DNA of 64,000 nucleotides, taken from the sequence record MT446416.1; one strand, given 5' to 3'. Within the stretch, counting starts at the first letter, position 1; the number at the start of each line of letters is the position of its first letter. Of this stretch, positions 1,537 to 62,959 are shown piece by piece. This DNA comes from Escherichia virus TH47. The notes under the pieces were generated by a model. It was not told the DNA's origin. It saw only the letters and a program-made list of their open reading frames with translations, and did not search any database. The translations under genes were made by a program, and so were the position numbers.

Positions 1537-3823
1537 ACGCAATAACTTTTTCTACTGCTTTAGTTCGTTTAGGTTTGATTGCCAATTTACCATCAATCAC
1601 ATCAAACGTTACGTTACCACCATTAACCAGAGAACCACACAACATCTCTTTAGCTAGTGGGACACGGATGTTTTGCTCAATAGTGCGTTTCATTGGACGT
1701 GCACCCATTCCAACTTTAACACCATTTGTTGCCAACCACTCACGAGCCGCTTTGGTCAGTGAAACTTTAACTTTGCGGTCTTTGATTTGTTCATTCAAAC
1801 TTCCCATGAACTTATCAATGATGCTGTCAATCGCTTCGCTGCTTAGGTCTTTGAATGTCACAATACTATCGATACGGTTGATGAATTCAGGTGGCAAGAA
1901 TGCTTTAATCGCTTTATCTTGTGCTGTATCACTACCGCTCATCCCAATACTACGCTTGGTTGAATCTGCTGCACCAAGGTTAGTCGTCATAATAACAGTT
2001 ACGTTATTGAAGTAAACAGTTTTACCTTGTGAACCAGTCAAACGTCCTTCGTCCAGAACCTGTAGGAAGGTTAGTAGTACTTTACGATCAGCTTTTTCGA
2101 TTTCATCGAGCAACAGTACTGCATTCGGGAACTGCTCAATCTTGTCGAGTAGCAGACCGTTACCAGAATCGTGACCAACATAGCCTGGAGGTGAACCAAT
2201 CAGTTTAGCAACAGTATGTTCCTGTGAAAACTCGGACATATCGAAACGAATCAGTTCAGAACCAGTTGCATCAGCCAGTGCTTTGGTAATTTCAGTTTTA
2301 CCAGTACCAGATGGCCCAACAAACATGAATGCACCTTGAACACTTGATTTATCACGCAGACCAGCACGAGCTACCATCACGTTATCAACCAGTTTCTGTA
2401 CTGCTTCTTCTTGACCGTATACACGAGAACGGAGTGCATCTGGTAGATTACGCATACGTTCACTTTCAGTGCAAGCAACCACGTTAATATCTAGGTTTGC
2501 GATACCTGCAACAACTTCTTGAATCAGTGCAACAGTGATGATGTTATCATCAGTTTCACGAGAACGTACTTTCGCTGCCGCCGCATCCATTAGGTCGATT
2601 GCTTTGTCAGGGAAGTGTTTGTTCTTCAGGAACTTATCACTTAGTGTAATAACTGCATCCATTGCTTCAGTACTGAACTCTACGTTATGGAAAGTTTCAT
2701 AAGTAGATTTCAAACCATTCACAATCGCACGGGTTTCATCAATTGATGGCTCAACTACATCAATTTTCATGAAACGACGAGTTAGTGCACTATCTTTTTC
2801 GATGTTTTTACGATATTCATCGTAAGTTGTTGCACCGATTACACGAATCTCACCACGAGATAGTGCAGGTTTGAGCATGTTGCTCATATCCATAGAACCG
2901 TTGCTTGCTGAACCAGCACCAACCATAATATGGATTTCATCGATGAACACAATAGTGTTTTCACGTTTCTTCAGTTCTTTTAGTAGGTTATCGATACGTT
3001 CTTCGAACTCACCACGGTACTTAGTACCAGCAGTCAGTGCACCTACGTTCAGAGACAGAATTTCAACATCTTTAAGATGCTCTGGTACTTCACCATCAGC
3101 GATTGCCTGTGCTAGACCATCAATGATTTGAGTTTTACCAACACCAGCTTCACCAGTCAGGATGGCATTCTTCTTAGTCTTACGGGCCAGAGTTTCAATC
3201 AGTGCAGAAAGCTCTTTCTGGCGACCAATCATTGGGTCAAGTTTACCTTCTTTTGCAAGTGCTGTTAGGTTAGTGGTGTAATCTTCTAAACCTTTTTGTT
3301 TGGACGATGGTTGCTGTTGTGCCACTTTTTTCTCCCCAGTTGGCTCATCACTAATGCTTTGAAGGTTGATTCCGTTGTCGATTGCTTCTACGTGCTTCTG
3401 TAGAGTTCGTGCTGCTTCAGTACAAGTGATACCCTCTTCACGCAATGCTGCTTCTAGTGCAGTATTTGGGAAGGACAAACACTCAAACAGTACAAAATAA
3501 GCATCAATTGAGAAATCATCACGTTTAAGTTGCTCAATTACTGATTTCTTAGAAAGTTCCTGAACTACACGGTTCACGAGAAGTGATGTGCGGTTCGCTT
3601 CATCACCATCAGCACTTTTAGGTGCATGTGGGAATGTTGTATTCTTCAGATATGCAATCAAACGACCGTGTAGGTTGTCTGCATCGATGTTCATATCTTC
3701 AAATACTGCTTTGATGCTATCGATTGTCAGTACTGTAGCACTTAGATGGTCAATAGTCAAGAAGGTATGACCCAGAGAAGTTGCCAGTTCGTCGCTTTTT
3801 TTGAATAATTGGGTAAGATTCAT
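1535..3823 (-). CDS. ClpA-like two-domain AAA+ unfoldase (Clp ATPase family)
   Basis: Clp N-domain-like N-terminus; two Walker A motifs (GEAGVGKT, GPSGTGKT) and Walker B motifs (VFIDEIH, LLLDEIEKA); start placed at ATG with AGGAGA RBS (ORF track starts at upstream GTG 3847). Confidence 0.9.
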   Translation of the reverse strand: MNLTQLFKKSDELATSLGHTFLTIDHLSATVLTIDSIKAVFEDMNIDADNLHGRLIAYLKNTTFPHAPKSADGDEANRTSLLVNRVVQELSKKSVIEQLKRDDFSIDAYFVLFECLSFPNTALEAALREEGITCTEAARTLQKHVEAIDNGINLQSISDEPTGEKKVAQQQPSSKQKGLEDYTTNLTALAKEGKLDPMIGRQKELSALIETLARKTKKNAILTGEAGVGKTQIIDGLAQAIADGEVPEHLKDVEILSLNVGALTAGTKYRGEFEERIDNLLKELKKRENTIVFIDEIHIMVGAGSASNGSMDMSNMLKPALSRGEIRVIGATTYDEYRKNIEKDSALTRRFMKIDVVEPSIDETRAIVNGLKSTYETFHNVEFSTEAMDAVITLSDKFLKNKHFPDKAIDLMDAAAAKVRSRETDDNIITVALIQEVVAGIANLDINVVACTESERMRNLPDALRSRVYGQEEAVQKLVDNVMVARAGLRDKSSVQGAFMFVGPSGTGKTEITKALADATGSELIRFDMSEFSQEHTVAKLIGSPPGYVGHDSGNGLLLDKIEQFPNAVLLLDEIEKADRKVLLTFLQVLDEGRLTGSQGKTVYFNNVTVIMTTNLGAADSTKRSIGMSGSDTAQDKAIKAFLPPEFINRIDSIVTFKDLSSEAIDSIIDKFMGSLNEQIKDRKVKVSLTKAAREWLATNGVKVGMGARPMKRTIEQNIRVPLAKEMLCGSLVNGGNVTFDVIDGKLAIKPKRTKAVEKVIA

Positions 3824-3861
3824 GTATTCTCCTAAATGAGTAGTCACTCTAATTAATAAAC

Positions 3862-3889
3862 ATTATATCACATTCTTTGCGTTTGTCAA
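3862..3889 (-). promoter_or_regulatory. sigma70 consensus promoter (TTGACA-N16-TGaTATAAT) driving the ClpA-like gene
   Basis: minus-strand reading gives TTGACA, 16-nt spacer, extended -10 TGATATAAT, about 35 nt upstream of the ATG; same 13-nt -10 block as the two copies at 27336-27457. Confidence 0.65.
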
Positions 3890-3931
3890 CAAGGTAAATA
3901 AAGATATACCCGATTTATTTTGGAGACAAAC

Positions 3932-5428
3932 ATGACATACAGAATGTGGAAAAAAGGTAGAACCAATGATTACAAGTTCATTGACTCTGCCATAGCAGAA
4001 CAATACAACATCGGTGGTGTTGACATGTGGCTTTATGCCTATGTCGGACCAAAACAAGTCGCTGATAACACTGATTTATCATATGGCGGTGATTATTATG
4101 GTTCAGATAGTACCGTTGTGTCAAGCATTGGTGATTTAATTTTTGGTGACACTCCAAGTCGTAACTATAATCTCGAAGCTATCACCTTAAGTTGCGTCTA
4201 CCAAGTCCAAGAAGCAACTCCTGACTTGAAAATCCCAGGATTGTTCTTCAACTTTAACACTATGGACATCACAATTCATTATAACACAATGATTCAGCGT
4301 TTGGGAAGAAAAATTATGCCAGGTGACGTAATCGAACTCCCTAACTTACGTGATTTTGATGTACTTGGTAAAGATTCTGGTTTAAATCGCTTCTATGTAG
4401 TACAAGATGGGTTTAGAACATCAGAAGGTTACTCAGTTACATGGCAACATCACATTTACAAACTCCGTGTTAAACCTCTTACTGATTCACCAGAGTATTC
4501 AGACCTTCTAGGTAACAATAACTACCCTGATGACCCAGATGAACCAAACAACGGCAATGGTAATACTGATGATGGCTCTTCAGAGAACAGCAGCTATGGT
4601 AATGAAATGGACATTATGAACCGTATCATTATGCAAGCTGATGATGAAGTACCATACATTCATTTTACTAACGAACACTTGTTCGATGACAGACCAGATA
4701 CCGTTGATTTGTCTAAGTATATGCTAAATGGATACGAATTACCAGAGGAACCAGCAAATAAAATGTATTTCCTCAAGAAAACTTACCCAGTACTGAAAGA
4801 ACTATCTAATGATACATGGATTTCTGTAGAAGTCAAGCGTGGAACAATCTTTCCTCGCAAACCGATGGATGGTGACTTCTTCTTTAAAGAAAACGAGGCT
4901 GATGTCACTGGCTTCTCATTGTATCAATACGATAAATCTGCCAAAAAGTGGCTAAATTGTGATGTTGAGTATACTACAGAAAGCACACCACCACAAGGGG
5001 TTGATGATTTTTATATTGAATACAAAGAACCACACATTTATCAGTACTTAAATGGTAAATGGGGAGAACCAGAAGTAACTTACGTTAATGACCCATTCAC
5101 TTCTAATAGTGTTTATGGAAATATCGATTCACAACAAGATTATCGTCCTAAGATTCCTCCAGCACGAGGTACAGTTCCTGAAGGTAATATGTTCCCAAGT
5201 GATGCAGTTGATGGTGATTACTACTATCGTACCGATTATACACCAGTAACCCTATGGGAATACAGTGCATCCAAGAATTCTTGGGTGATTTTCGATTACG
5301 GTGGTAGAAAACCGTGGGAAGGTGCAGATCTTGCTCTAACAGAATTTGTTAATAGCCCGAACCGTGTACCATTACATGATGCAGTTAAACCTAATACAGC
5401 GTATCGTATACATAAGGATTCAGAATGA
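3932..5428 (+). CDS. hypothetical protein, possible virion (neck/tail completion) protein
   Basis: ORF with GGAGA RBS 6 nt before ATG 3932 (track starts at TTG 3920); stop overlaps next start (ATGA); no motif recognised. Confidence 0.6.
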   Translation: MTYRMWKKGRTNDYKFIDSAIAEQYNIGGVDMWLYAYVGPKQVADNTDLSYGGDYYGSDSTVVSSIGDLIFGDTPSRNYNLEAITLSCVYQVQEATPDLKIPGLFFNFNTMDITIHYNTMIQRLGRKIMPGDVIELPNLRDFDVLGKDSGLNRFYVVQDGFRTSEGYSVTWQHHIYKLRVKPLTDSPEYSDLLGNNNYPDDPDEPNNGNGNTDDGSSENSSYGNEMDIMNRIIMQADDEVPYIHFTNEHLFDDRPDTVDLSKYMLNGYELPEEPANKMYFLKKTYPVLKELSNDTWISVEVKRGTIFPRKPMDGDFFFKENEADVTGFSLYQYDKSAKKWLNCDVEYTTESTPPQGVDDFYIEYKEPHIYQYLNGKWGEPEVTYVNDPFTSNSVYGNIDSQQDYRPKIPPARGTVPEGNMFPSDAVDGDYYYRTDYTPVTLWEYSASKNSWVIFDYGGRKPWEGADLALTEFVNSPNRVPLHDAVKPNTAYRIHKDSE

Positions 5429-6768
5429 AAATAGATTATTATTATGATGGTCAATTTCGTCGAGTACTGAAACATCTTATCAGAGTGTTTGGTGAATTTC
5501 AAGTACAAAATGGTGTTGATGCTGACGGAAAACCAAAATATAAGAAAGTTCCTTGCCGCTATGCAGATATTTCACGTATGGCAGCAGCAATTATTAATGG
5601 TAACAGTGAGAACGTGCTTCCAACAGCACCAATCATGACCATTAGTGTAAACCAACTTAAACTAGATCGCAAGTCAGTTCGTTCAAACGCAAATGAAACA
5701 TTAGTTATGGGGACTAACAAGTCCCCTGGAATTAACGAATATACTAAAGACTTAGATAAACAGTATAAAGTAACTCGTCATAACCCAGTACCTTGGACAT
5801 TTACGTTTGATGTTAATATTTGGGTTACACAAACACAAACTAAAATGGAACTATTTGAGCAAATTTCAACATTGTTTGCTCCTAGTATTCAATTACAACT
5901 CTCCGAGAACCCACTGGATTGGACATCATTGAGTGATGTGGAGTTGATTGACTGTCAATTTACTACTCGTGGTTTCCCACAAGGAACCGATAGTGATTTG
6001 GATATAATGGTATTGACATTTGAAACCACAATTTGGTTCTCTTTGCCAGCTATTGTTGAGAAACCAAAACTTATCCAACAAATCACCACCAATATTAAAG
6101 GTGCTCGTGATGAACTTGATTTTGAAATTGGTAATTACTCGGATATCATTACTGATGTATTCACACCAAAGAACTTATGTATTAAAGTTGATGAAATAAC
6201 AAACTCTGAACTTAATATCCCAGATACTTACCAACTCACTCTTGTTAGTCAATCACTATCAGAAACATCACCAAATGGTGGGATTTATTCATGGGAAAAA
6301 TACCTTAAGTACTTGGACCCAGAATATGAAGACAAGACTGTAGGTATTAAATTCCAACAAGCTATAGAAGAGGATAACCCACTAAAAGGACATATCTCTT
6401 CATTTGGGGAAGGGGCTGATTCTAACAAGATTGTAGTTCAGCTTGATAATAGTAATTATACTGTTGATTATACAATACATGGATTCATTAGTAAAGACTC
6501 TTTGTTATATAACGCACTACCTGAACAATATTATGTAAATAATAGCATACATAACATCATTTACAAAGAGACTGAAATCCCAGCGAACTATTTGTTTAAA
6601 ATTACCAATGATGGAGCAGAACTTATTGAGCCATCGCGAGTACACCACTATGTTTATAATATGGAAGATAGTGGATATTATAGATATAATGACAAATTCA
6701 AATGGCATAAGAGTATTATGTCAGTATATCGTCAGGGATATTGGAAAATAACTTTCACTGACAAATAA
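5425..6768 (+). CDS. hypothetical protein, possible virion (neck/tail completion) protein
   Basis: 447-aa ORF translationally coupled to the upstream gene; AAGGA RBS; no catalytic motif. Confidence 0.6.
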   Translation: MKIDYYYDGQFRRVLKHLIRVFGEFQVQNGVDADGKPKYKKVPCRYADISRMAAAIINGNSENVLPTAPIMTISVNQLKLDRKSVRSNANETLVMGTNKSPGINEYTKDLDKQYKVTRHNPVPWTFTFDVNIWVTQTQTKMELFEQISTLFAPSIQLQLSENPLDWTSLSDVELIDCQFTTRGFPQGTDSDLDIMVLTFETTIWFSLPAIVEKPKLIQQITTNIKGARDELDFEIGNYSDIITDVFTPKNLCIKVDEITNSELNIPDTYQLTLVSQSLSETSPNGGIYSWEKYLKYLDPEYEDKTVGIKFQQAIEEDNPLKGHISSFGEGADSNKIVVQLDNSNYTVDYTIHGFISKDSLLYNALPEQYYVNNSIHNIIYKETEIPANYLFKITNDGAELIEPSRVHHYVYNMEDSGYYRYNDKFKWHKSIMSVYRQGYWKITFTDK

Positions 6769-39706: not shown

Positions 39707-41701
39707 TTAATATTTTTTTGTGTATTTTATATTACCAGAGTTGTAAATCTTATAATATCCCAATACATCACAGCAAATTTGTCTCTCAGTTAAGTTAATA
39801 TCATGACCTTTCTTGACCAATTTATGTTTTTGACATTTCTGACGTGAAATCCTCTCATGTGTTTGTGGGTCATAATAAAAATATCCGGGTTCTGTATAGC
39901 TATCAAACTCAAAGCCAAGAACTGTATAAAGATCACCACTACTCCAATCCATATCCGCATATGTCAATAATGATTGTGGATTATATACTGTTTCAAAATA
40001 TTTTAGTAATTTTGATGCACCACCAACAACTGTACCGGATGAACAGTATCTGATTAATTCATATTCATAGTTTTTATCAAACCTTGATTTACCAAAGGTC
40101 ATAACTGCAACTAAATCACTTCCATAGTAAAGTCCAATGTGAATACTTGCTTGTGCAACACCTTGAATATGGTGTGATTTAGTAAACATATTACTTACTT
40201 GTTTGTCTATATTTCTAACAGTACATTTTCTAGCATAAATTCTATTTGACACTAGAAGTTTATTCTTTAAACGTTCCTTGATAATTTTATTTGTTAATGG
40301 GTTATCCCATTCATCTTCATAAATGTGAATAAGATTCACCCCATGTTTTAAACAATCCAATACCTTATCTTGATGTTTAGTGGAATTTACATTTTCATCA
40401 TTATGCCAATACACACCATTAAATTCAATAGCTAGATTACGGTCTGGGATATACACATCCAACTCTTTAGGTTTCAGCACTGAACGGTCGTTTTCTATAA
40501 TTTGCATATTTTGTATTAATGATTTTATATAATCAACTAAATCTTTCTCTTTCAATGAATGACCATTATTTTTCTGACACTTACATTTCACTTTATGATT
40601 TTTATACTTACTATAAAACAATTCATCACAATACTCACACCAAAATGGGTATTCGTCTGTATTAACTTTCATCATTAGGTCGGTGTTTTCAAATAATGGA
40701 ATATAGTTTTTATCAATATTTGCAACAATGATATTATATCTTTCGTCTAGACGAGCAAGTGACATTTTCTCTTTATACTCATCAGTCTGTGAGTAGTGTT
40801 CTGAACCATATCTATTTTTTGTGGTTTCTTTCATTTTTTCAATGATAGAATTATTTTGGGCTGGGTGTTTTACACCATATCGCTCCACATTGGTATTATG
40901 AACTTTTTCCTGAACACTCATATTGCTCATTGGGTAAAATGAATTATACTTCAACGTGTTGGTGTTTTTTATTTTATCTTGGACAATTTTATTTGATAGT
41001 GGATTGCCACCATATCGTTCAAGATTTGTTTTATTGATTTTTTCACGAATCGTCGGTGATGATAAAGAATACTCAGCACCGTATCTTAATATATTTGTGT
41101 TTTTGGCTTTCTCTTTTACTTCATTTCTTTTGCTTTGGAATTCAACACCATACTTTTTTAAATTTGTTGCTTTTACTTTATTGAATATTTCAGAGTTTTG
41201 GTTTGGATATTCACAACCATATCGCTCTATATTAGTTTGTTTGATTTTATCTTTAGTTTCTGATGTTTGTAAATTAGATGAGACACCATAACGCTCAATG
41301 TTAGTTTTTTCTTTCTTTTGTTTTACTTCTTGTATTTGGGACACATTAGATACACCATACATATCCATTAATGTTGATTTTGTTTTATTAGTTCGATTTT
41401 TATAATACATTTCATGGCATACATTACATGTATTTTTCTTATTAATCACATAGTCATCACAAAATTTATAAAATCCTTTTTGGAAATTTTTGTATCTTGC
41501 TTTTTTTCCGCAATATGCAGTTGGAACGGTTGTTATATCATTCATGAACATATATAGAATTTTATATATTTCGAAATCAGTTTTTGGTTCTATTCCAAAA
41601 GTAGAAAGGAGAACCCTCACACGAGAGTCCCCTTTGTATAAATGTACCCATGAATTAATATGTTTTGACAACAAAAGTTTTTTTAATTCTTCATTGTTCA
41701 T
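39707..41701 (-). CDS. repeat-rich endonuclease-like protein with Vsr/DUF559-type PD-(D/E)xK domain (homing-endonuclease candidate)
   Basis: nine tandem ~29-aa repeats with core TN(I/L)ERYG; Cys cluster CEYCDELF...CKC; motif LDVYIPDRNLAIEFNGVYWH. Confidence 0.55.
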   Translation of the reverse strand: MNNEELKKLLLSKHINSWVHLYKGDSRVRVLLSTFGIEPKTDFEIYKILYMFMNDITTVPTAYCGKKARYKNFQKGFYKFCDDYVINKKNTCNVCHEMYYKNRTNKTKSTLMDMYGVSNVSQIQEVKQKKEKTNIERYGVSSNLQTSETKDKIKQTNIERYGCEYPNQNSEIFNKVKATNLKKYGVEFQSKRNEVKEKAKNTNILRYGAEYSLSSPTIREKINKTNLERYGGNPLSNKIVQDKIKNTNTLKYNSFYPMSNMSVQEKVHNTNVERYGVKHPAQNNSIIEKMKETTKNRYGSEHYSQTDEYKEKMSLARLDERYNIIVANIDKNYIPLFENTDLMMKVNTDEYPFWCEYCDELFYSKYKNHKVKCKCQKNNGHSLKEKDLVDYIKSLIQNMQIIENDRSVLKPKELDVYIPDRNLAIEFNGVYWHNDENVNSTKHQDKVLDCLKHGVNLIHIYEDEWDNPLTNKIIKERLKNKLLVSNRIYARKCTVRNIDKQVSNMFTKSHHIQGVAQASIHIGLYYGSDLVAVMTFGKSRFDKNYEYELIRYCSSGTVVGGASKLLKYFETVYNPQSLLTYADMDWSSGDLYTVLGFEFDSYTEPGYFYYDPQTHERISRQKCQKHKLVKKGHDINLTERQICCDVLGYYKIYNSGNIKYTKKY
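40624..41389 (-). repeat. nine tandem ~87-nt coding repeats (ERYG repeats)
   Basis: periodic K.K.TN.ERYG....Q motif in the translated product. Confidence 0.6.
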
Positions 41702-41727
41702 ATAGTTCTCTTTTTAAATGTTTAAAT

Positions 41728-45317: not shown

Positions 45318-46433
45318 TTAGAACATTTGCTTGATTGCTTCAATACGCAATTCAGCAACAAAATCACGAATCTCTGATGTTTGGAGTTCACCATCTTTCA
45401 CTAACTGCTGAATATCAGGTAATTCAACATCAGTATAACGATCATAAACTTTAATAATCAAATCTTCAAGATCAGAATCAATTTCTTTGTTCAAAATGAA
45501 GTTTTCCAGTACTTTGTAAAGGAAATCTTCGCCACCATTGTTTTTGATATTCATCTCCAGTAAGATTTGTCCCATTTCAACGGGGGTCTTCTTACGGAAG
45601 GTTTTAATATCTTCACGGAAACGCTTGATGTAATTACTAAACTTCACGTACTTAACTGGAACCTTAATAGAACCATTAAGTACTGAATCATTATTTACTT
45701 CTTCATTTTCAAGAAGTACTGTCCATAAGAAATATGGTTTATATTCTTCTGTACAATTTGCAGCGATAGCATCAATTAATTCCAGACGTTTCTTGGTAAC
45801 TGGAACTGTAGTAAATGCCTTTTCGTAATAACCAAATTGTACCAGAGTTTTGATAAACTTGGAAGGGTTTTCTTCAGAAAGTGCTTTTTCGAATTCAACA
45901 AAAACACGATCTGGAACTAGATGGTCTAGTTCACCAGTACTAACCATATCTTTACACATTGTCATAGTATCATCATGGATTGTAAAGTCTGAGTAACGTG
46001 TAGCGAAACGTGCCAAACGTAGTACACGCAATGGATCTTCTTTAAAGTGTTCTGATACATGACGAAGTACTTTGTTCTTGATATCAGCTTTCCCGCCATA
46101 AGGGTCGATGTGAATCTGGAGTACTGGATCATACGCTATGCTATTTACCGTAATATCCCTTCTGTATAGATCTTGCTCTAGTGTCACGCCTTTAGTATTC
46201 ACTTCGAAGCCACCGTAGCCAGTACCAGTTTTACGTTCGGTACGTGCCAATGCGTGCTCATTACCCTCTGGACTTAGATACACTGGAAAATCCTTACCTA
46301 CTTGCTTATAGCCAATACTTTGTAAGTACTTAATATCGGATTCGGTAGCACCGACAATGACATAATCTTTGTCTTTTGCACGAATACCCATTAAACGGTC
46401 CCTCACATAGCCGCCCACCAAATACTTTTTCAT
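45318..46433 (-). CDS. tRNA nucleotidyltransferase (CCA-adding enzyme) / poly(A) polymerase head-domain protein
   Basis: N-terminal GGYVRDRLMG, DKDY and RRDITVNSIAYD motifs; GAGGAAGG RBS. Confidence 0.8.
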   Translation of the reverse strand: MKKYLVGGYVRDRLMGIRAKDKDYVIVGATESDIKYLQSIGYKQVGKDFPVYLSPEGNEHALARTERKTGTGYGGFEVNTKGVTLEQDLYRRDITVNSIAYDPVLQIHIDPYGGKADIKNKVLRHVSEHFKEDPLRVLRLARFATRYSDFTIHDDTMTMCKDMVSTGELDHLVPDRVFVEFEKALSEENPSKFIKTLVQFGYYEKAFTTVPVTKKRLELIDAIAANCTEEYKPYFLWTVLLENEEVNNDSVLNGSIKVPVKYVKFSNYIKRFREDIKTFRKKTPVEMGQILLEMNIKNNGGEDFLYKVLENFILNKEIDSDLEDLIIKVYDRYTDVELPDIQQLVKDGELQTSEIRDFVAELRIEAIKQMF

Positions 46434-47497
46434 AATATACCTTCCTCTGAAAGATGTTTTTTTAATACAGTTAAGTGGTCTTCATAATATGTTACACGTA
46501 TTAATTTAATAAAATTCTTTTCACAATATTGTGTCTTTATAGTATCGTTATCCTTGATGTTTTTCAATTTATCTTCTCCACCCCAATGAGGTGATTTCTC
46601 AAAATGTTGTTTACCATCATACTCAATACAAATATCATAATCAACCAAATAAAAATCAAATCTTAATAACATTTTATTTTTACAGTCACTAAATGTTTGT
46701 TCTTTATTAAATTTTATACCATTTTCAATTAAAAAACGTGTTATTTCTCTACTAGCTCTGGATTCAGTATGTTCAGATGAGCATATTGGGCAACCTTGTT
46801 TTTTATTTTTTGCTATATGAAAATTTGGAATGATATAAAAAGAATTATTATGTTTTTTACAAATTATTTCAACATGAGTGCTACTATTAATGTAGATGAC
46901 TTTTGAATAGTCATATACATTACCATGAATTTCTTTTGCTCGTTCAACAAATTCAGCGGTGGTGAATGCGTGTGCTAATCTGGTTTTTTCAAATCGACAA
47001 ATAGAGCAACCCTGACCACTTTGTATATTACTAATTTCCATTTCATCAACGTGACCACATTTTAAGCATTTATAAGTTAATTTGGTTCTTTTATCTTTAA
47101 TTATTGGTTGTTCTAAAAGTAATTCACATTCACCAGTCATTAGACTTTTTGAAGTCTTATAAAGATAATATCTATAATTTGCATTGTCATATTTCCCAAT
47201 GATATATTTCATACCTTTCGTTTTTATATCATTTATATTTCTTTTTGTATATATAATACCATCTTTTTCAACAACAGTTCTTGTAAAACTAGATTTCCAT
47301 TCATCACTTGATGTTATAGCAAATCCTAAAATATTATATCCTTTTTCTATTATTTCTTCAAAATGTTCTTTAGGTGTTTTTGATGTTTTAATTAATTTTG
47401 GTGATAAATCTTCGGGACGCATCCATTCGAAACGCATACCTAATTCTTCATGGAAATATACCTTCTCGTTATTTTCATTAAAATAAAATTTATACAT
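46430..47497 (-). CDS. Vsr/DUF559-type endonuclease-like protein with zinc ribbon (homing-endonuclease candidate)
   Basis: CLKCGH...CSIC and CPIC Cys pairs; C-terminal LLRFDFYLVDYDICIEYDGKQHFE resembles DUF559 endonuclease motif. Confidence 0.5.
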   Translation of the reverse strand: MYKFYFNENNEKVYFHEELGMRFEWMRPEDLSPKLIKTSKTPKEHFEEIIEKGYNILGFAITSSDEWKSSFTRTVVEKDGIIYTKRNINDIKTKGMKYIIGKYDNANYRYYLYKTSKSLMTGECELLLEQPIIKDKRTKLTYKCLKCGHVDEMEISNIQSGQGCSICRFEKTRLAHAFTTAEFVERAKEIHGNVYDYSKVIYINSSTHVEIICKKHNNSFYIIPNFHIAKNKKQGCPICSSEHTESRASREITRFLIENGIKFNKEQTFSDCKNKMLLRFDFYLVDYDICIEYDGKQHFEKSPHWGGEDKLKNIKDNDTIKTQYCEKNFIKLIRVTYYEDHLTVLKKHLSEEGIL

Positions 47498-55849: not shown

Positions 55850-56293
55850 TTATTGTAAAACTTTAAGTTTGTAAAGCATTCCTTCACAAAAACTCATAAT
55901 GTCTTCTAGTGTGTTAGTACTGCCATAGTCTTCAGCCTCTTCAAGCATAGCATGAATGGCTTTACATTGACTAACATATTCTTCAAGAATTGGTACACAA
56001 TCCTCGATAGGGGTAAAACGATAACTGTTACCAGTACCTACCTGTAATGCCCCGCGAGTGTTCATAATACCCTCTACAAATGCATCAACGTACTCAGGTA
56101 ACTCTTTGTATAGTTCATCCAATTGTAGATGCTTAGTGTAGAAATGGCTCTGTAAATGCCAGTTGTGAGCAGCAGCACTTAAAAATAAACTATTCTCAAT
56201 AAATGTAAGTAGTACTTCATCATAAGAACTATCTTCTTCAGTATCTCCAATAAAGTCCATAACGTGGCGAAGTGTTGATATATCTTCATTCAT
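55850..56293 (-). CDS. Dps/ferritin-like protein
   Basis: segment AAHNWHLQSHFYTKHLQLDELYKELPEYVDAFVEG aligns with Dps ferroxidase region (H, H, D, E conserved); start at ATG with AGAGGA RBS. Confidence 0.45.
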   Translation of the reverse strand: MNEDISTLRHVMDFIGDTEEDSSYDEVLLTFIENSLFLSAAAHNWHLQSHFYTKHLQLDELYKELPEYVDAFVEGIMNTRGALQVGTGNSYRFTPIEDCVPILEEYVSQCKAIHAMLEEAEDYGSTNTLEDIMSFCEGMLYKLKVLQ

Positions 56294-56322
56294 ATAATTA
56301 CATCCTCTATGTGTATTCATAT

Positions 56323-56964
56323 TCATATTTTATTTATAGTAATGGTGATATTAAAACTTTCTATATCATTCTTTAATATATCAACTCGTTTTCGTAAACC
56401 ATCTATAACTTCTGGTATTACATCATTTTTATACATCTCTATTAACTCTTCTATATATTTTTTCTTTTCTATCTGCCACGCACGATGTGCATCTTCTGGA
56501 GTTTCATAAACACCAATGTATGTTGTTTTATTATATATTGTTATTTTAGCACAATAAGGTTTGGTATATTCACTCACCATGTCTTTTGGACGTTTTCTGT
56601 ATATCACTCCCATTCCATATGGTGATGCATTTGCAGCACTGTCTAGTATACAGTAATTCAATTCTTTGGGAACAAATGCACATGTTTCAGGAGAATAGAT
56701 TTTCTTACTCCCACCAATAATATCTTTATCTAATTGATATCCTTCTTTATAATGTGATTTGTACCAAATTTTAAATTTTGAATAATACTTCCACTCATCA
56801 CATACAACAGTTCCAATATAAGAACCCTTAGCCTTATCGGAATAGCATCGGTCTAACATACGTTGCCATGCACAATATATTGCTCGATCTGGATTTGTTA
56901 TACTAGCATCACCTTTTATATCACAGATGCCATGACCATAAAACTTCTTCATTAATTTATCCAT
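56323..56964 (-). CDS. AP2-like DNA-binding domain protein (homing-endonuclease-associated family)
   Basis: C-terminal YIGVYETPEDAHRAWQ resembles AP2 domain; N-terminal W..M..RC...Y....C..W pattern. Confidence 0.4.
   Translation of the reverse strand: MDKLMKKFYGHGICDIKGDASITNPDRAIYCAWQRMLDRCYSDKAKGSYIGTVVCDEWKYYSKFKIWYKSHYKEGYQLDKDIIGGSKKIYSPETCAFVPKELNYCILDSAANASPYGMGVIYRKRPKDMVSEYTKPYCAKITIYNKTTYIGVYETPEDAHRAWQIEKKKYIEELIEMYKNDVIPEVIDGLRKRVDILKNDIESFNITITINKI
56331..56338 (-). promoter_or_regulatory. T4-late-promoter-like TATAAATA box
   Basis: exact TATAAATA on the minus strand about 38 nt upstream of the Dps-like start. Confidence 0.3.
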
Positions 56965-56974
56965 ATTTTTGTAA

Positions 56975-60255: not shown

Positions 60256-60672
60256 TTACAACATTTTTTGAATATGATCTACGAGTTTACATAGCATTGT
60301 ATCATTATCTTCGTACTTTTGATCAACTTCAACTTTGAATTCTTCTTCAAGTTCCATGATCATTTCAATCCAGTCAAGCCAATCGAATTTAAATTTATCT
60401 TCAATTTCCCATTTCTTAAGATGGAAGTTCATTGATACATCTTTCTCTGATGCATTTTTGTCGCGACTTGTAATGAATTTGACAATTGCTTTTTCAACGT
60501 CAGTTAGTTCACGTGTGCGATATTCTGGATCAAGATACCATTCGCCATTATTGATAGCTTCCAACGAAAGTCTAAGTTCATGCATTAGTTTATAACGATC
60601 AGTACTTTTCTGGATGCGGTTAACTTCGCGATTCAGTACACGTAGTGCGTCTTTGATTTGTTCGTTTAGCAT
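60256..60672 (-). CDS. acyl-carrier-protein-like domain protein lacking the carrier serine
   Basis: C-terminus FDWLDWIEMIMELEEEFKVEV...LVDHI aligns with ACP [20 protein letters not shown]...AIDYI but has W in place of S; start at ATG with GAGGA RBS. Confidence 0.4.
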   Translation of the reverse strand: MLNEQIKDALRVLNREVNRIQKSTDRYKLMHELRLSLEAINNGEWYLDPEYRTRELTDVEKAIVKFITSRDKNASEKDVSMNFHLKKWEIEDKFKFDWLDWIEMIMELEEEFKVEVDQKYEDNDTMLCKLVDHIQKML

Positions 60673-60682
60673 AACAATCCTC

Positions 60683-62959
60683 TTATTTTTTACTGTACCA
60701 TTGCATTTCACGGATATCTAATAGTACCTTCGTAGCCAACTTTATGTTTGGTCGCTTCGGTAGATGGGTTTTATGATACGCCACATTTCGGATGTAGTCA
60801 ACCTTTTCGTTGAAATAATCCATAACTTCTTGATACAACCACTTCCCGTTACGAATGTCCATCAACATAGCAGCATCTGGTCGGTGAACTTGGATGATGC
60901 CAGTTTCAAGTGCTTCCTCGGCTGTATTCAGCAGCCTGATTGTATGCATAGCATGTTTGCAATTTCCATGTAATGCGGTTTTTCCATTTCTACGAGTAAT
61001 GAGTGTTCCGTTGGGAACAGAAAAACACACAGTTCTGTAATTAGTAACTGGAATTTTTTCAAGATTTTGTTTCATGTTCATTTTTTCGGTTTTGGGTTTC
61101 ATATTGATATGAATTTGATATATATCAACACTACCAAAATTGGTTTCGTTTGTGTATGGTCCCCATTTTGATGTTTCATAACCACATAGCAATGCTAGTT
61201 TTTGAACATCATCAGCTAATAATGAATTGGTAGTATAATATACAAATGTATCATTGTCATTAACTAAATTTCGTTTTGTTCCATCACCTTGTAACAAACC
61301 TTTCAGAAGGAAATCCATTTTACGTTTTGTTAAATCAAATACCCAATTTGGAATTCGTTTATTATATGAACCATGTCCACAATCATTATATAATGCTTCA
61401 GCTACTTCACTTGGGAATGTATATCTTGATTCGTCATTAGCTTGATAATCTTTCTTTTCTATAATGTATTCATTAAACATTAATTGACCAGATTTTTTGT
61501 ATTTTGATAAAGCACAACGCATACCTTGACTAGTTTTTGACTGGGAAATATATAAAGATTTTACTTTACCATCCCTGAAATTTATGCACCCATCTGAAAT
61601 AAACCATCCCATGAGTTGAAGATAAACTTTGATATCCATGTAGTCAATTGGACTTTTTTTATCTTTGTGTTCTTTAGTTATTGGGGATATTGTATTCAAA
61701 ATTTTATATGTTTCTTTTAATTGTGCTGCTTCTACAAATTTCCAATCAGACATATCTTTTTGTTGATTTCGTGCATAATCCTTAACATACATTCGGTGGT
61801 TAGCAGTCACTAAAGTATCTTGGTGATGACCAGTGAAATGGTATAGATTGCCATTATATAAATTATCAAAACGTTCAGTGTATTTCTGATATTCAACTTT
61901 GTGATTTTTGTCAAAAGTAGCTAATAGATCGTTTTCAGTAATATCATCAAATAACTTCCAACCATCTTTAGTTAAGAATTCAGTATCAAAACTATAACAG
62001 TCATAACCGTGGTGTGATTCAAGAATAGCACGTTTGGCATTACGGTTCTGCTTCCATTTGTGATAACTCTTACGGTTCTCACTATTTTCTTTGTATTCCT
62101 TTTCATTGAATTTTACAATGAGTTCAGGACGAACTTTTAATTCTTCCGAAGTACGTTCTTTATTGAAGTAACGTAGTGAACCATCAGCATTCACTGTACT
62201 TTCATTCGGGTTGATAATTACCCCAAAGATGTTTTCACCGTAATGGATTAGTTCATATCCAGAATTGTAATTCAATAAATTGAAATCACGATCTAATACT
62301 TTGTCAGTACTATAATTATGTACTAAACGTACAAAATGATATTGTTTCAATGCTTGTGTTGAAACTAATTGTAATGAAGTATCACGCATGTATTTTTCGA
62401 AATCAATTTTTGTAGCATTGAATGGGTGAAGATTGGATTTATTCAAACGGTCAACCAAATACTGCGGGAATGTATCATACATCCATGAAAGTACTTCGTC
62501 AACTGGATGTTCTTCTAAAATTTCATTTAGTTTACGTTCAGCAATTCGTTCCTTATCGAGCCATCCGTGGTGATTCGACATACGCTTAACCTGATTGTAT
62601 GCATAACCACTGTATGAATGAGCAATCTTTGAACTCAATAATTGCTGATTGAATGAGCGTAGATAGTCATAGATTTCAGTACTTTCTACGATGTGTTCCG
62701 GTTTAACCCATAGTGATTCAAGAATGTTTGGGTTAGCTTCTGTATAAAGACTTAAGTACTGATTGACTTCATAAAATTTAGTATCTTCTTCAGAAGGATC
62801 TGAAACTTCCTTAACATTAAAAAAAGGAGTTAGGATAAATTCTTTGTTTGCAAGGAAGATACCACGATAATCGGTATCACTTTCTGGTGTGCTTGTGCCA
62901 TACGCCTGTGAACCCGCTAAGTGTTTAACAATTGTTTGTTCTAGAAAATTGTTTTTCAT
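60683..62959 (-). CDS. Pol-beta-superfamily nucleotidyltransferase-fold protein interrupted by a probable intein
   Basis: N-terminal HLAGSQAYGTSTPESDTDYRGIF (GS...DxD NTase motif); in-frame 346-aa insert with Hint and LAGLIDADG blocks. Confidence 0.55.
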   Translation of the reverse strand: MKNNFLEQTIVKHLAGSQAYGTSTPESDTDYRGIFLANKEFILTPFFNVKEVSDPSEEDTKFYEVNQYLSLYTEANPNILESLWVKPEHIVESTEIYDYLRSFNQQLLSSKIAHSYSGYAYNQVKRMSNHHGWLDKERIAERKLNEILEEHPVDEVLSWMYDTFPQYLVDRLNKSNLHPFNATKIDFEKYMRDTSLQLVSTQALKQYHFVRLVHNYSTDKVLDRDFNLLNYNSGYELIHYGENIFGVIINPNESTVNADGSLRYFNKERTSEELKVRPELIVKFNEKEYKENSENRKSYHKWKQNRNAKRAILESHHGYDCYSFDTEFLTKDGWKLFDDITENDLLATFDKNHKVEYQKYTERFDNLYNGNLYHFTGHHQDTLVTANHRMYVKDYARNQQKDMSDWKFVEAAQLKETYKILNTISPITKEHKDKKSPIDYMDIKVYLQLMGWFISDGCINFRDGKVKSLYISQSKTSQGMRCALSKYKKSGQLMFNEYIIEKKDYQANDESRYTFPSEVAEALYNDCGHGSYNKRIPNWVFDLTKRKMDFLLKGLLQGDGTKRNLVNDNDTFVYYTTNSLLADDVQKLALLCGYETSKWGPYTNETNFGSVDIYQIHINMKPKTEKMNMKQNLEKIPVTNYRTVCFSVPNGTLITRRNGKTALHGNCKHAMHTIRLLNTAEEALETGIIQVHRPDAAMLMDIRNGKWLYQEVMDYFNEKVDYIRNVAYHKTHLPKRPNIKLATKVLLDIREMQWYSKK
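60962..61999 (-). mobile_element. probable intein with LAGLIDADG homing-endonuclease domain
   Basis: block A CYSFDTEFLTKDGWKLFDDI, block B LVTANHRMYV, two LAGLIDADG-like motifs LMGWFISDG and LLKGLLQGDG, C-terminal NGKTALHGN followed by Cys. Confidence 0.5.

Follow-up and report, generated by a model that had tools for sequence, protein, structure and literature searches.

The stretch of DNA analyzed here in its entirety, referred to as the window, comprises 64,000 nucleotides of Escherichia virus TH47 (MT446416.1), and it is DNA of an Asteriusvirus-like E. coli jumbo phage (a 350-kb phage). On its minus strand, the open reading frame (ORF) 60683..62959, with its stop codon at 60683-60685, encodes a precursor of 758 residues and 89.3 kDa. 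We are highly confident that this precursor is a nucleotidyltransferase of the RlaP family interrupted by an intein of the class 1 type that contains a LAGLIDADG homing endonuclease; the intein is genuine and apparently intact.

All features of this gene are on the same strand. The N-extein (residues 1-320; 62000..62959) includes the Pol-beta nucleotidyltransferase core, a lineage-specific middle region and the motif W-K-x-N-R-N...H-G-Y-D; the nucleotidyltransferase signature GSQAYGTSTPESDTD, containing G16, S17, D28 and D30, lies at 62870..62914. The intein, 346 residues long (40.5 kDa), occupies precursor residues 321-666 (60962..61999, 1038 nt). The C-extein (residues 667-758 plus the stop codon; 60683..60961) begins with the +1 nucleophile Cys667, which opens the motif CKHAMHTIRLL (60929-60961), in which K, the second H and R do not vary across the host family. 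Within the intein, the N-terminal splicing (Hint) part spans residues 1-104 (61688..61999), a boundary that is approximate since it was taken from the secondary structure of the model; it starts with block A, CYSFDTEFLTKDG (61961-61999), at the intein N-terminus, and holds block B, QDTLVTANHRMYV (61784-61822), with LVTANH (T65 and H68). The LAGLIDADG homing-endonuclease domain, from about residue 105 to 305 (61085..61687), contains the motifs LQLMGWFISDG (residues 127-137; 61589-61621; acidic residue D136) and FLLKGLLQGDG (residues 230-240; 61280-61312; acidic residue D239), spaced 103 residues apart. The C-terminal splicing part (residues 306-346; 60962..61084) comprises blocks F/G, TVCFSVPNGTLITRRNGKTALHGN (60962-61033), with C325, the invariant R336, the penultimate G345 and the terminal N346, so that the insert ends in HGN followed by Cys667. 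The initial Cys, block A, the TxxH motif, both LAGLIDADG motifs and the final Asn followed by Cys were all found at the places given in a preliminary description made from the sequence alone. The GC content is 30% in the intein, 35% in the N-extein and 41% in the C-extein, and the chance of 346 codons staying open, computed from the base composition of the insert itself, is about 4e-14.

Comparison with intein-free relatives defined the insertion precisely. The 3.5 kb around the insert displayed ~96.5% DNA identity to phages vB_Ec-M-J, WPEC3, EC.P1, fEgEco12, CMSTMSU and Turkey3 and ~81% to phages of the 121Q/PBECO4 type, and the DNA matches of this region to every relative are interrupted at the insert. 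When the precursor was compared by tblastn, Asteriusvirus-type records, among the matches listed, gave a two-piece match covering 54-56% of the protein and ~1.23 kb of DNA. In the protein alignment with EcMJ_241 of vB_Ec-M-J (412 residues) the flanks differ by 2 substitutions in 412, and the single gap corresponds exactly to residues 321-666 (60962-61999), as expected for the 346-residue in-frame insert proposed earlier. At the DNA level the insert is located between ...CACGGTTATGAC and TGCAAACATGCT..., and the sequence GYD/CKHAMH (the slash marks the junction) is uninterrupted in the 412-residue orthologues of Asteriusvirus phages (vB_Ec-M-J, 121Q and others); dozens of such intein-free proteins, 98-100% identical, are on record. 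The alignment with intein-free homologues thus confirmed that the boundaries of the insertion are precise, and the objection that these 346 residues might be an integral domain of homologues fails, all Asteriusvirus-type matches examined in the phage collection being without those residues.

The host protein matched the Pfam family RlaP (PF10127) over residues 14-131 (E = 1.2e-14; 55.1 bits against a cut-off of 23), and G16, S17, D28 and D30 of the G-S...D-x-D signature were invariant among 27 diverse intein-free homologues; with a match above the gathering score and an invariant signature, its earlier assignment as a Pol-beta-type nucleotidyltransferase is well founded. Also invariant in the 27 homologues were W302, K303, R306, N307, R310, E314, D320, K322, H326 and R329 (numbered as in the intein-free protein). 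The intein is inserted between the invariant D320 and residue 321, which the invariant K322 follows; at position 321, intein-free homologues have C, T, L or G, and intein-bearing proteins always C, S or T. The insertion site is therefore a highly conserved motif, as anticipated in the preliminary description, and it is plausible that it forms part of the active site. Because D320, K322, H326 and R329 are invariant, the host enzyme should need splicing to work. In an AlphaFold model of the intein-free protein (predicted local distance difference test score, pLDDT, 90.9) the site corresponds to a short loop, residues 318-320, before a helix spanning residues 321-340. A fold search with the intein-free host returned weak nucleotidyltransferase neighbors (Hailong HalB, ANT(4') and LinB, all with E > 0.01), and a sequence search for a solved relative of the host enzyme found none.

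To describe the insert itself we used a 42-sequence alignment, built from 50 intein relatives retrieved in a search of 5.8 billion proteins. The AlphaFold2 model obtained with this alignment had a pLDDT of 95 and a predicted template modeling (TM) score of 0.93. In a Foldseek comparison with the PDB, inteins bearing an endonuclease ranked first (TliVMA, 1.9e-15; PI-SceI, 1.5e-13; PhoVMA; PI-PkoII, 1.7e-10), followed by the free LAGLIDADG enzymes I-DmoI (3.8e-6), I-SceI (4.9e-5) and I-AniI; Hint domains were matched as well, among them the Hedgehog Hint (8.9e-5), mini-inteins and BIL domains. TliVMA and PhoVMA (7qsu, 7qss, 7qst), PI-SceI (1vde) and PI-PkoII (2cw7) share with the TH47 intein the two-domain fold in which a LAGLIDADG domain is inserted in Hint (Foldseek E from 1.9e-15 to 1.7e-10, TM about 0.55-0.63); they differ in that sequence identity is 10-12%, that they are archaeal or yeast inteins located in V-ATPase or DNA polymerase, and that their chains, by the listed lengths, are mostly longer than 346 residues. 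Taken singly, the intein sequence gave modest evidence, matching Pfam LAGLIDADG_3 (E = 5e-6), the AceL NrdHF intein over blocks A-B (E = 0.003) and, weakly, PI-PkoII, together with NCBIfam models of intein-containing PolII, DnaB, GyrA and RpoA'' and the PHROG families of intein-containing ThyX and PhoH. Used as a profile, the 42-sequence family recovered PI-PkoII (1.4e-21) along with two VMA inteins and the AceL NrdHF and Mja KlbA inteins. The sequence and fold features of a two-motif, monomeric LAGLIDADG endonuclease are present: the spacing of ~100 residues, the acidic residues D136 and D239, the LAGLIDADG_3 match and the fold matches to I-DmoI and I-SceI.

One result of these searches weighs against an intein: the Hint and intein-terminus models of Pfam and NCBIfam gave no match to the intein alone, even at E up to 10, its matches in these scans being limited to LAGLIDADG_3 and to models of whole intein-containing proteins. 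Of the check with hidden Markov models suggested in the preliminary description, the LAGLIDADG part was borne out while the Pfam Hint part was not; the Hint fold is nevertheless predicted, by the model and by its Foldseek matches to solved inteins and to the Hedgehog Hint. Given the missing Pfam Hint match, one could suppose that the mature protein retains the 346 residues, either as an integral domain or as a Hint-like insertion of the BIL type that does not splice. We consider this highly improbable, since exactly these residues are missing from orthologues 99.5% identical in the exteins, an invariant motif is disrupted by the insertion, every intein-bearing relative has C, S or T at +1 (some intein-free homologues have L or G there), and related inteins are found in unrelated hosts (ThyX, DNA methylases, PolA).

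The residues expected to carry out splicing were then counted over the 42-member alignment. Cys1 is present in 41 of the 42 members, T65 of block B in 37 and H68 in all; an acidic residue (D or E) at LAGLIDADG position 136 is found in 42/42 and D239 in 41/42; R336, within TRRNGK, is conserved in 42/42, the penultimate G345 in 41/42 and the terminal N346 in 39/42, with Gln in the remaining three. At +1, all 42 relatives have C, S or T. As the residue before the penultimate Gly varies across the family (H, Q, C, S, I and others), the HGN ending does not represent a displaced penultimate His; it is rather the family norm, given the Gly in 41/42. The description of this ending as atypical was thus correct in that HGN is real and the penultimate His absent, but the ending is usual within its own family and represents a known variation (PMC5050341). 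Kelley et al. (2016, mBio, PMC5050341) reported that mycobacteriophage class 1 inteins often have Gly, Lys or Ser in place of the penultimate His; inteins with a penultimate residue other than His splice, and an intein with a penultimate Gly splices efficiently, its G-to-H change slowing the reaction (PMC5050341). The gp51 recombination directionality factor intein of phage Bethlehem (PMC5050341) also has a penultimate Gly before the terminal Asn, in a different host protein.

Block F positions were taken from a weak local hhalign alignment (E = 0.014) of the intein with its endonuclease removed against Npu DnaE. In this weak alignment Cys325, present in 38/42 members, aligns with block F position 4 (F:4), usually Asp, and a Thr stands at F:13, where His is usual. 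The textbook class 1 picture is weakened at this point: the usual helpers of Asn cyclization are missing, both the penultimate His (Gly here) and, by the weak alignment, the block F His (Thr here), and F:4 is Cys instead of Asp. A penultimate His and the block F His/Asp are frequent features of inteins, not obligatory ones. C325 (61025-61027), together with the retained Cys1 and the invariant Arg336, makes an unusual set for a class 1 intein.

Class 3 inteins are defined by the lack of a nucleophile at position 1 and by the triplet Trp(B:12)-Cys(F:4)-Thr(G:5) (PMC5050341). Membership in this class was rejected: the intein retains Cys1 and has Met at B:12 and His at G:5, the Cys at F:4 alone being in agreement. 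A route related to class 3, in which C325 would carry the branched thioester or take over the roles of the missing histidines, seems rather improbable: C325 is kept in 38/42 members in alignment with F:4, the AceL NrdHF intein, listed in the PDB as a split intein of class 3, is similar to the N-terminal part, and both assisting histidines are missing, yet 41/42 members retain Cys1, neither the Trp at B:12 nor the Thr at G:5 is present, the alignment of block F is weak (hhalign E of 0.014), and published surveys place mycobacteriophage inteins only in classes 1 and 3 (PMC5050341). With a Cys at F:4, an invariant Arg and no assisting His, the family departs from the standard residue set, and there is a small chance that it is a mechanistic variant. 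It is doubtful that its catalysis departs from textbook class 1, either through participation of the block F Cys or the invariant Arg in branch formation or Asn cyclization, or through a Cys1-Cys325 or Cys1-Cys+1 disulfide; if the disulfide version were true, maturation of the nucleotidyltransferase would be redox-dependent during infection.

The intein allele to which the TH47 element belongs has been described before, from mycobacteriophages, where it occupies this site in nucleotidyltransferases of this family. Among isolated phages, the gp3 nucleotidyltransferases in 92 records of cluster C1 mycobacteriophages matched best, with 33% identity over all 346 residues (E about 1e-49), and gp3 of mycobacteriophage Cali reads ...AYGWD/CYLDDTEFLT...RRNGKVAMHGN/TKTGYHALRL, that is, with an identical insertion site. 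A nucleotidyltransferase intein was reported in 23 cluster C1 mycobacteriophages (Kelley et al. 2016, PMC5050341) and has been studied again (Gosselin et al. 2025, bioRxiv 10.1101/2025.01.02.630785). In common with the TH47 intein, that of the Bxz1-like C1 mycobacteriophages (Cali, LRRHood) resides in the host family PF10127/IPR018775, has its insertion point between the invariant Asp of G-[YW]-D and [CST]-K, and combines Hint and LAGLIDADG domains with the blocks CY..DTEFLT, VT.NH, TRRNGK and HGN, the two being alignable over all 346 residues. They differ in their identity of only about 33%, in the genomes that carry them (a 350-kb E. coli jumbo phage and a 155-kb mycobacteriophage), in the +1 residue (Cys here, Thr in Cali), and in the host protein, which in the E. 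coli phage has an extra ~170 residues before the insertion site. The same insertion site is seen in the 765-residue nucleotidyltransferase of the Prevotella megaphage Lak-B9 (...NYD/CYLNNETEFLT...FHGN/SKNMMHSFRL) and in metagenomic nucleotidyltransferases (P0002-P0022) whose inteins are 32-54% identical to that of TH47, while more distant family members are located in ThyX, DNA methylases, PolA, the ribonucleotide reductase small subunit, terminase, portal and NAMPT.

In Rak2-like jumbo phages inteins have been noted in the terminase only (PMC5259590); those of Rak2 and K64-1 also combine Hint with LAGLIDADG and come from the same broad enterobacterial jumbo-phage group, but their host gene is the large terminase, none being reported in the nucleotidyltransferase by that study. 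Our literature search found no report of an intein in the Asteriusvirus nucleotidyltransferase. New, then, is the presence of this intein in E. coli jumbo phages, where it is publicly unannotated, and in Lak megaphages.

Two further arrangements were observed among same-site relatives. In two metagenomic phage contigs of 84 and 237 kb (L009 and L010; the longest on record for the protein has 351,809 nt), at 3346-5800, the nucleotidyltransferase gene is split into a 177-residue ORF with the RlaP N-terminal domain, a 41-residue ORF and a 599-residue ORF with a same-site intein (48% identical); upstream of the intein there may be a second interruption (an intron, a frameshift or another mobile element). 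A nucleotidyltransferase with a same-site intein, 39% identical, is also encoded in a 557-kb record labeled Promethearchaeota archaeon (JBSWQT010000001.1), in the vicinity of NAPRTase, phosphoribosyl pyrophosphate synthetase, nucleoside deoxyribosyltransferase and GIY-YIG genes; this record has the appearance of a huge-phage genome that was assigned to an Asgard archaeon in binning.

Regarding the distribution of the intein in E. coli jumbo phages, the exact 758-residue protein is on public record, in a cluster of at least 28 members at 90% identity, from E. coli-associated contigs of roughly 350 kb, whose full-length members have 756-759 residues. The named members come from E. coli assemblies, several of them on contigs of 320-360 kb, and are labeled "nucleotidyltransferase domain-containing protein", "DNA polymerase beta superfamily protein" or "hypothetical protein", with the intein in none of the names shown. 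In the phage collection there was no isolated Escherichia phage with this intein, and the DNA of other intein-bearing E. coli phage alleles had no match in complete E. coli genomes and none in the IMG/VR scan; the window protein had no entry in the contig index. Compared with the window protein, alleles of the window type are 99-100% identical in the N-extein, 99.7% in the intein and 98-100% in the C-extein; the corresponding values are 85%, 89.6% and 74% for the P0173 type and 89%, 92.5% and 83% for P0179. Intein-bearing alleles thus occur in at least three extein lineages, with inteins 89.6-99.7% identical, and for each extein type a closely similar protein without the intein exists (99.5% identity to P0051, 96.3% to P0085 and 96.9% to P0084). 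The homing cycle predicts just such a scattered occurrence among lineages.

A further allele, P0174, is a chimera: its residues 1-256 are P0173-like (249/256 identical, compared with 221/256 to the window protein), whereas residues 257-758 are window-like with a single difference, which puts the crossover ~64 codons upstream of the intein as judged from the protein. Its structure is compatible with co-conversion during homing, though ordinary recombination could also have produced it. When the spliced flanks were compared with five intein-free relatives, no clear co-conversion tract was found by the insertion; the 40 nt on either side of the insert are identical in the window, vB_Ec-M-J and CMSTMSU, and the only changes near the junction unique to the window are at -41/-42 and +46 nt.

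The intein could accordingly be a decayed one, with a splicing domain that still works, because the host enzyme depends on splicing, and an endonuclease that no longer cuts, inheritance being vertical or through ordinary recombination. Inactive endonucleases are common in inteins that persist, as is generally known of the homing cycle, and the flanks lack a distinct co-conversion tract. We nonetheless regard decay as unlikely, for both LAGLIDADG acidic residues are kept (42/42 and 41/42), the endonuclease domain is full length and confidently folded in the model, at least three extein lineages carry the intein beside near-identical intein-free alleles, and the inteins (89.6-92.5%) are more alike than the exteins (74-89%).

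For a homing-competent intein, the putative cleavage target CACGGTTATGAC/TGCAAACATGCT is identical in vB_Ec-M-J, whose intein-free allele reads CACGGTTATGAC/TGCAAACATGCTATGCAT across the junction. In the intein-free phages WPEC3, fEgEco12 and Turkey3, the 24 nt that follow the insertion point on its downstream side (GAT/TGTAAACACGCAATGCATACAGTC) contain 3-6 substitutions, all of them synonymous but for one Ile-to-Val change; the synonymous junction changes in WPEC3 and Turkey3 give GAT/TGTAAACACGCA. These changes could be due to drift or to escape from recognition by the endonuclease.

From the conserved chemistry and the distribution we infer that both protein splicing and DNA cleavage with homing take place, through steps that would follow established intein chemistry. 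Once the 89-kDa precursor is translated, Cys1 would undergo an N-S acyl shift at the D320-C321 bond, the +1 residue C667 would attack the resulting thioester, and cyclization of Asn346 would free the 40.5-kDa intein. An S-N shift would then leave a normal peptide bond, restoring a 48.9-kDa enzyme that reads ...HGYD-CKHAMH... and whose ligated junction would yield the tryptic peptide AILESHHGYDCK. In a mixed infection, the endonuclease of the free intein would cut intein-free alleles at CACGGTTATGAC/TGCAAACATGCT, and recombinational repair would copy the intein into the cut allele.

Other parts of the window also differ from the relatives. Just downstream of the nucleotidyltransferase gene, the acyl-carrier-protein-like gene contains 24 window-unique substitutions in ~160 nt (60290-60448), while the neighboring DNA is about 97-98% identical to the five relatives, which points to a small mosaic or recombination patch. 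Three insertions are seen with respect to vB_Ec-M-J. The first, of 2 kb (39709-41726), lies between the head-tail adaptor gene and its neighbor and is the part of the window with the lowest GC content (0.305); its ORF 39707..41701 (-) encodes 664 residues that match Pfam DUF7487 (E = 4e-38) and in which K..N..RYG motifs recur; the C-terminal segment looks similar to a Vsr/PD-(D/E)xK nuclease, and the ORF is probably a free-standing gene of the homing-endonuclease type. The second, of 1.06 kb (46435-47491), directly upstream of the tRNA nucleotidyltransferase gene (45318..46433), carries the ORF 46430..47497 (-) of 355 residues, which combines a treble-clef zinc finger (DUF4379, E = 2e-7) with a nuclease-like C-terminal segment and is probably another free-standing mobile endonuclease gene. 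The third, of 0.7 kb (56270-56970), contains the ORF 56323..56964 (-), whose 213-residue product has no Pfam match and which presumably recalls the AP2-type DNA-binding domains of homing endonucleases. A group I intron or other RNA element was considered and discarded, as no Rfam match reached the gathering score, one sub-threshold chance match to a snoRNA falling outside the gene; a local tblastn search of the 64-kb window for a second intein returned the self match only.

This finding reveals no new kind of system. It calls for a correction of annotation, as the public entries carry nucleotidyltransferase-type names with the intein unmarked, and it offers a 346-residue intein with a penultimate Gly as material for splicing studies, along with a naturally occurring pair of E. 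coli jumbo phages, one with and one without the intein, that could be used in homing crosses. The range of one intein allele, known from mycobacteriophages, is extended to jumbo phages of enterobacteria and to megaphages of Prevotella, making it a useful case for the movement of inteins between very distant large phages.

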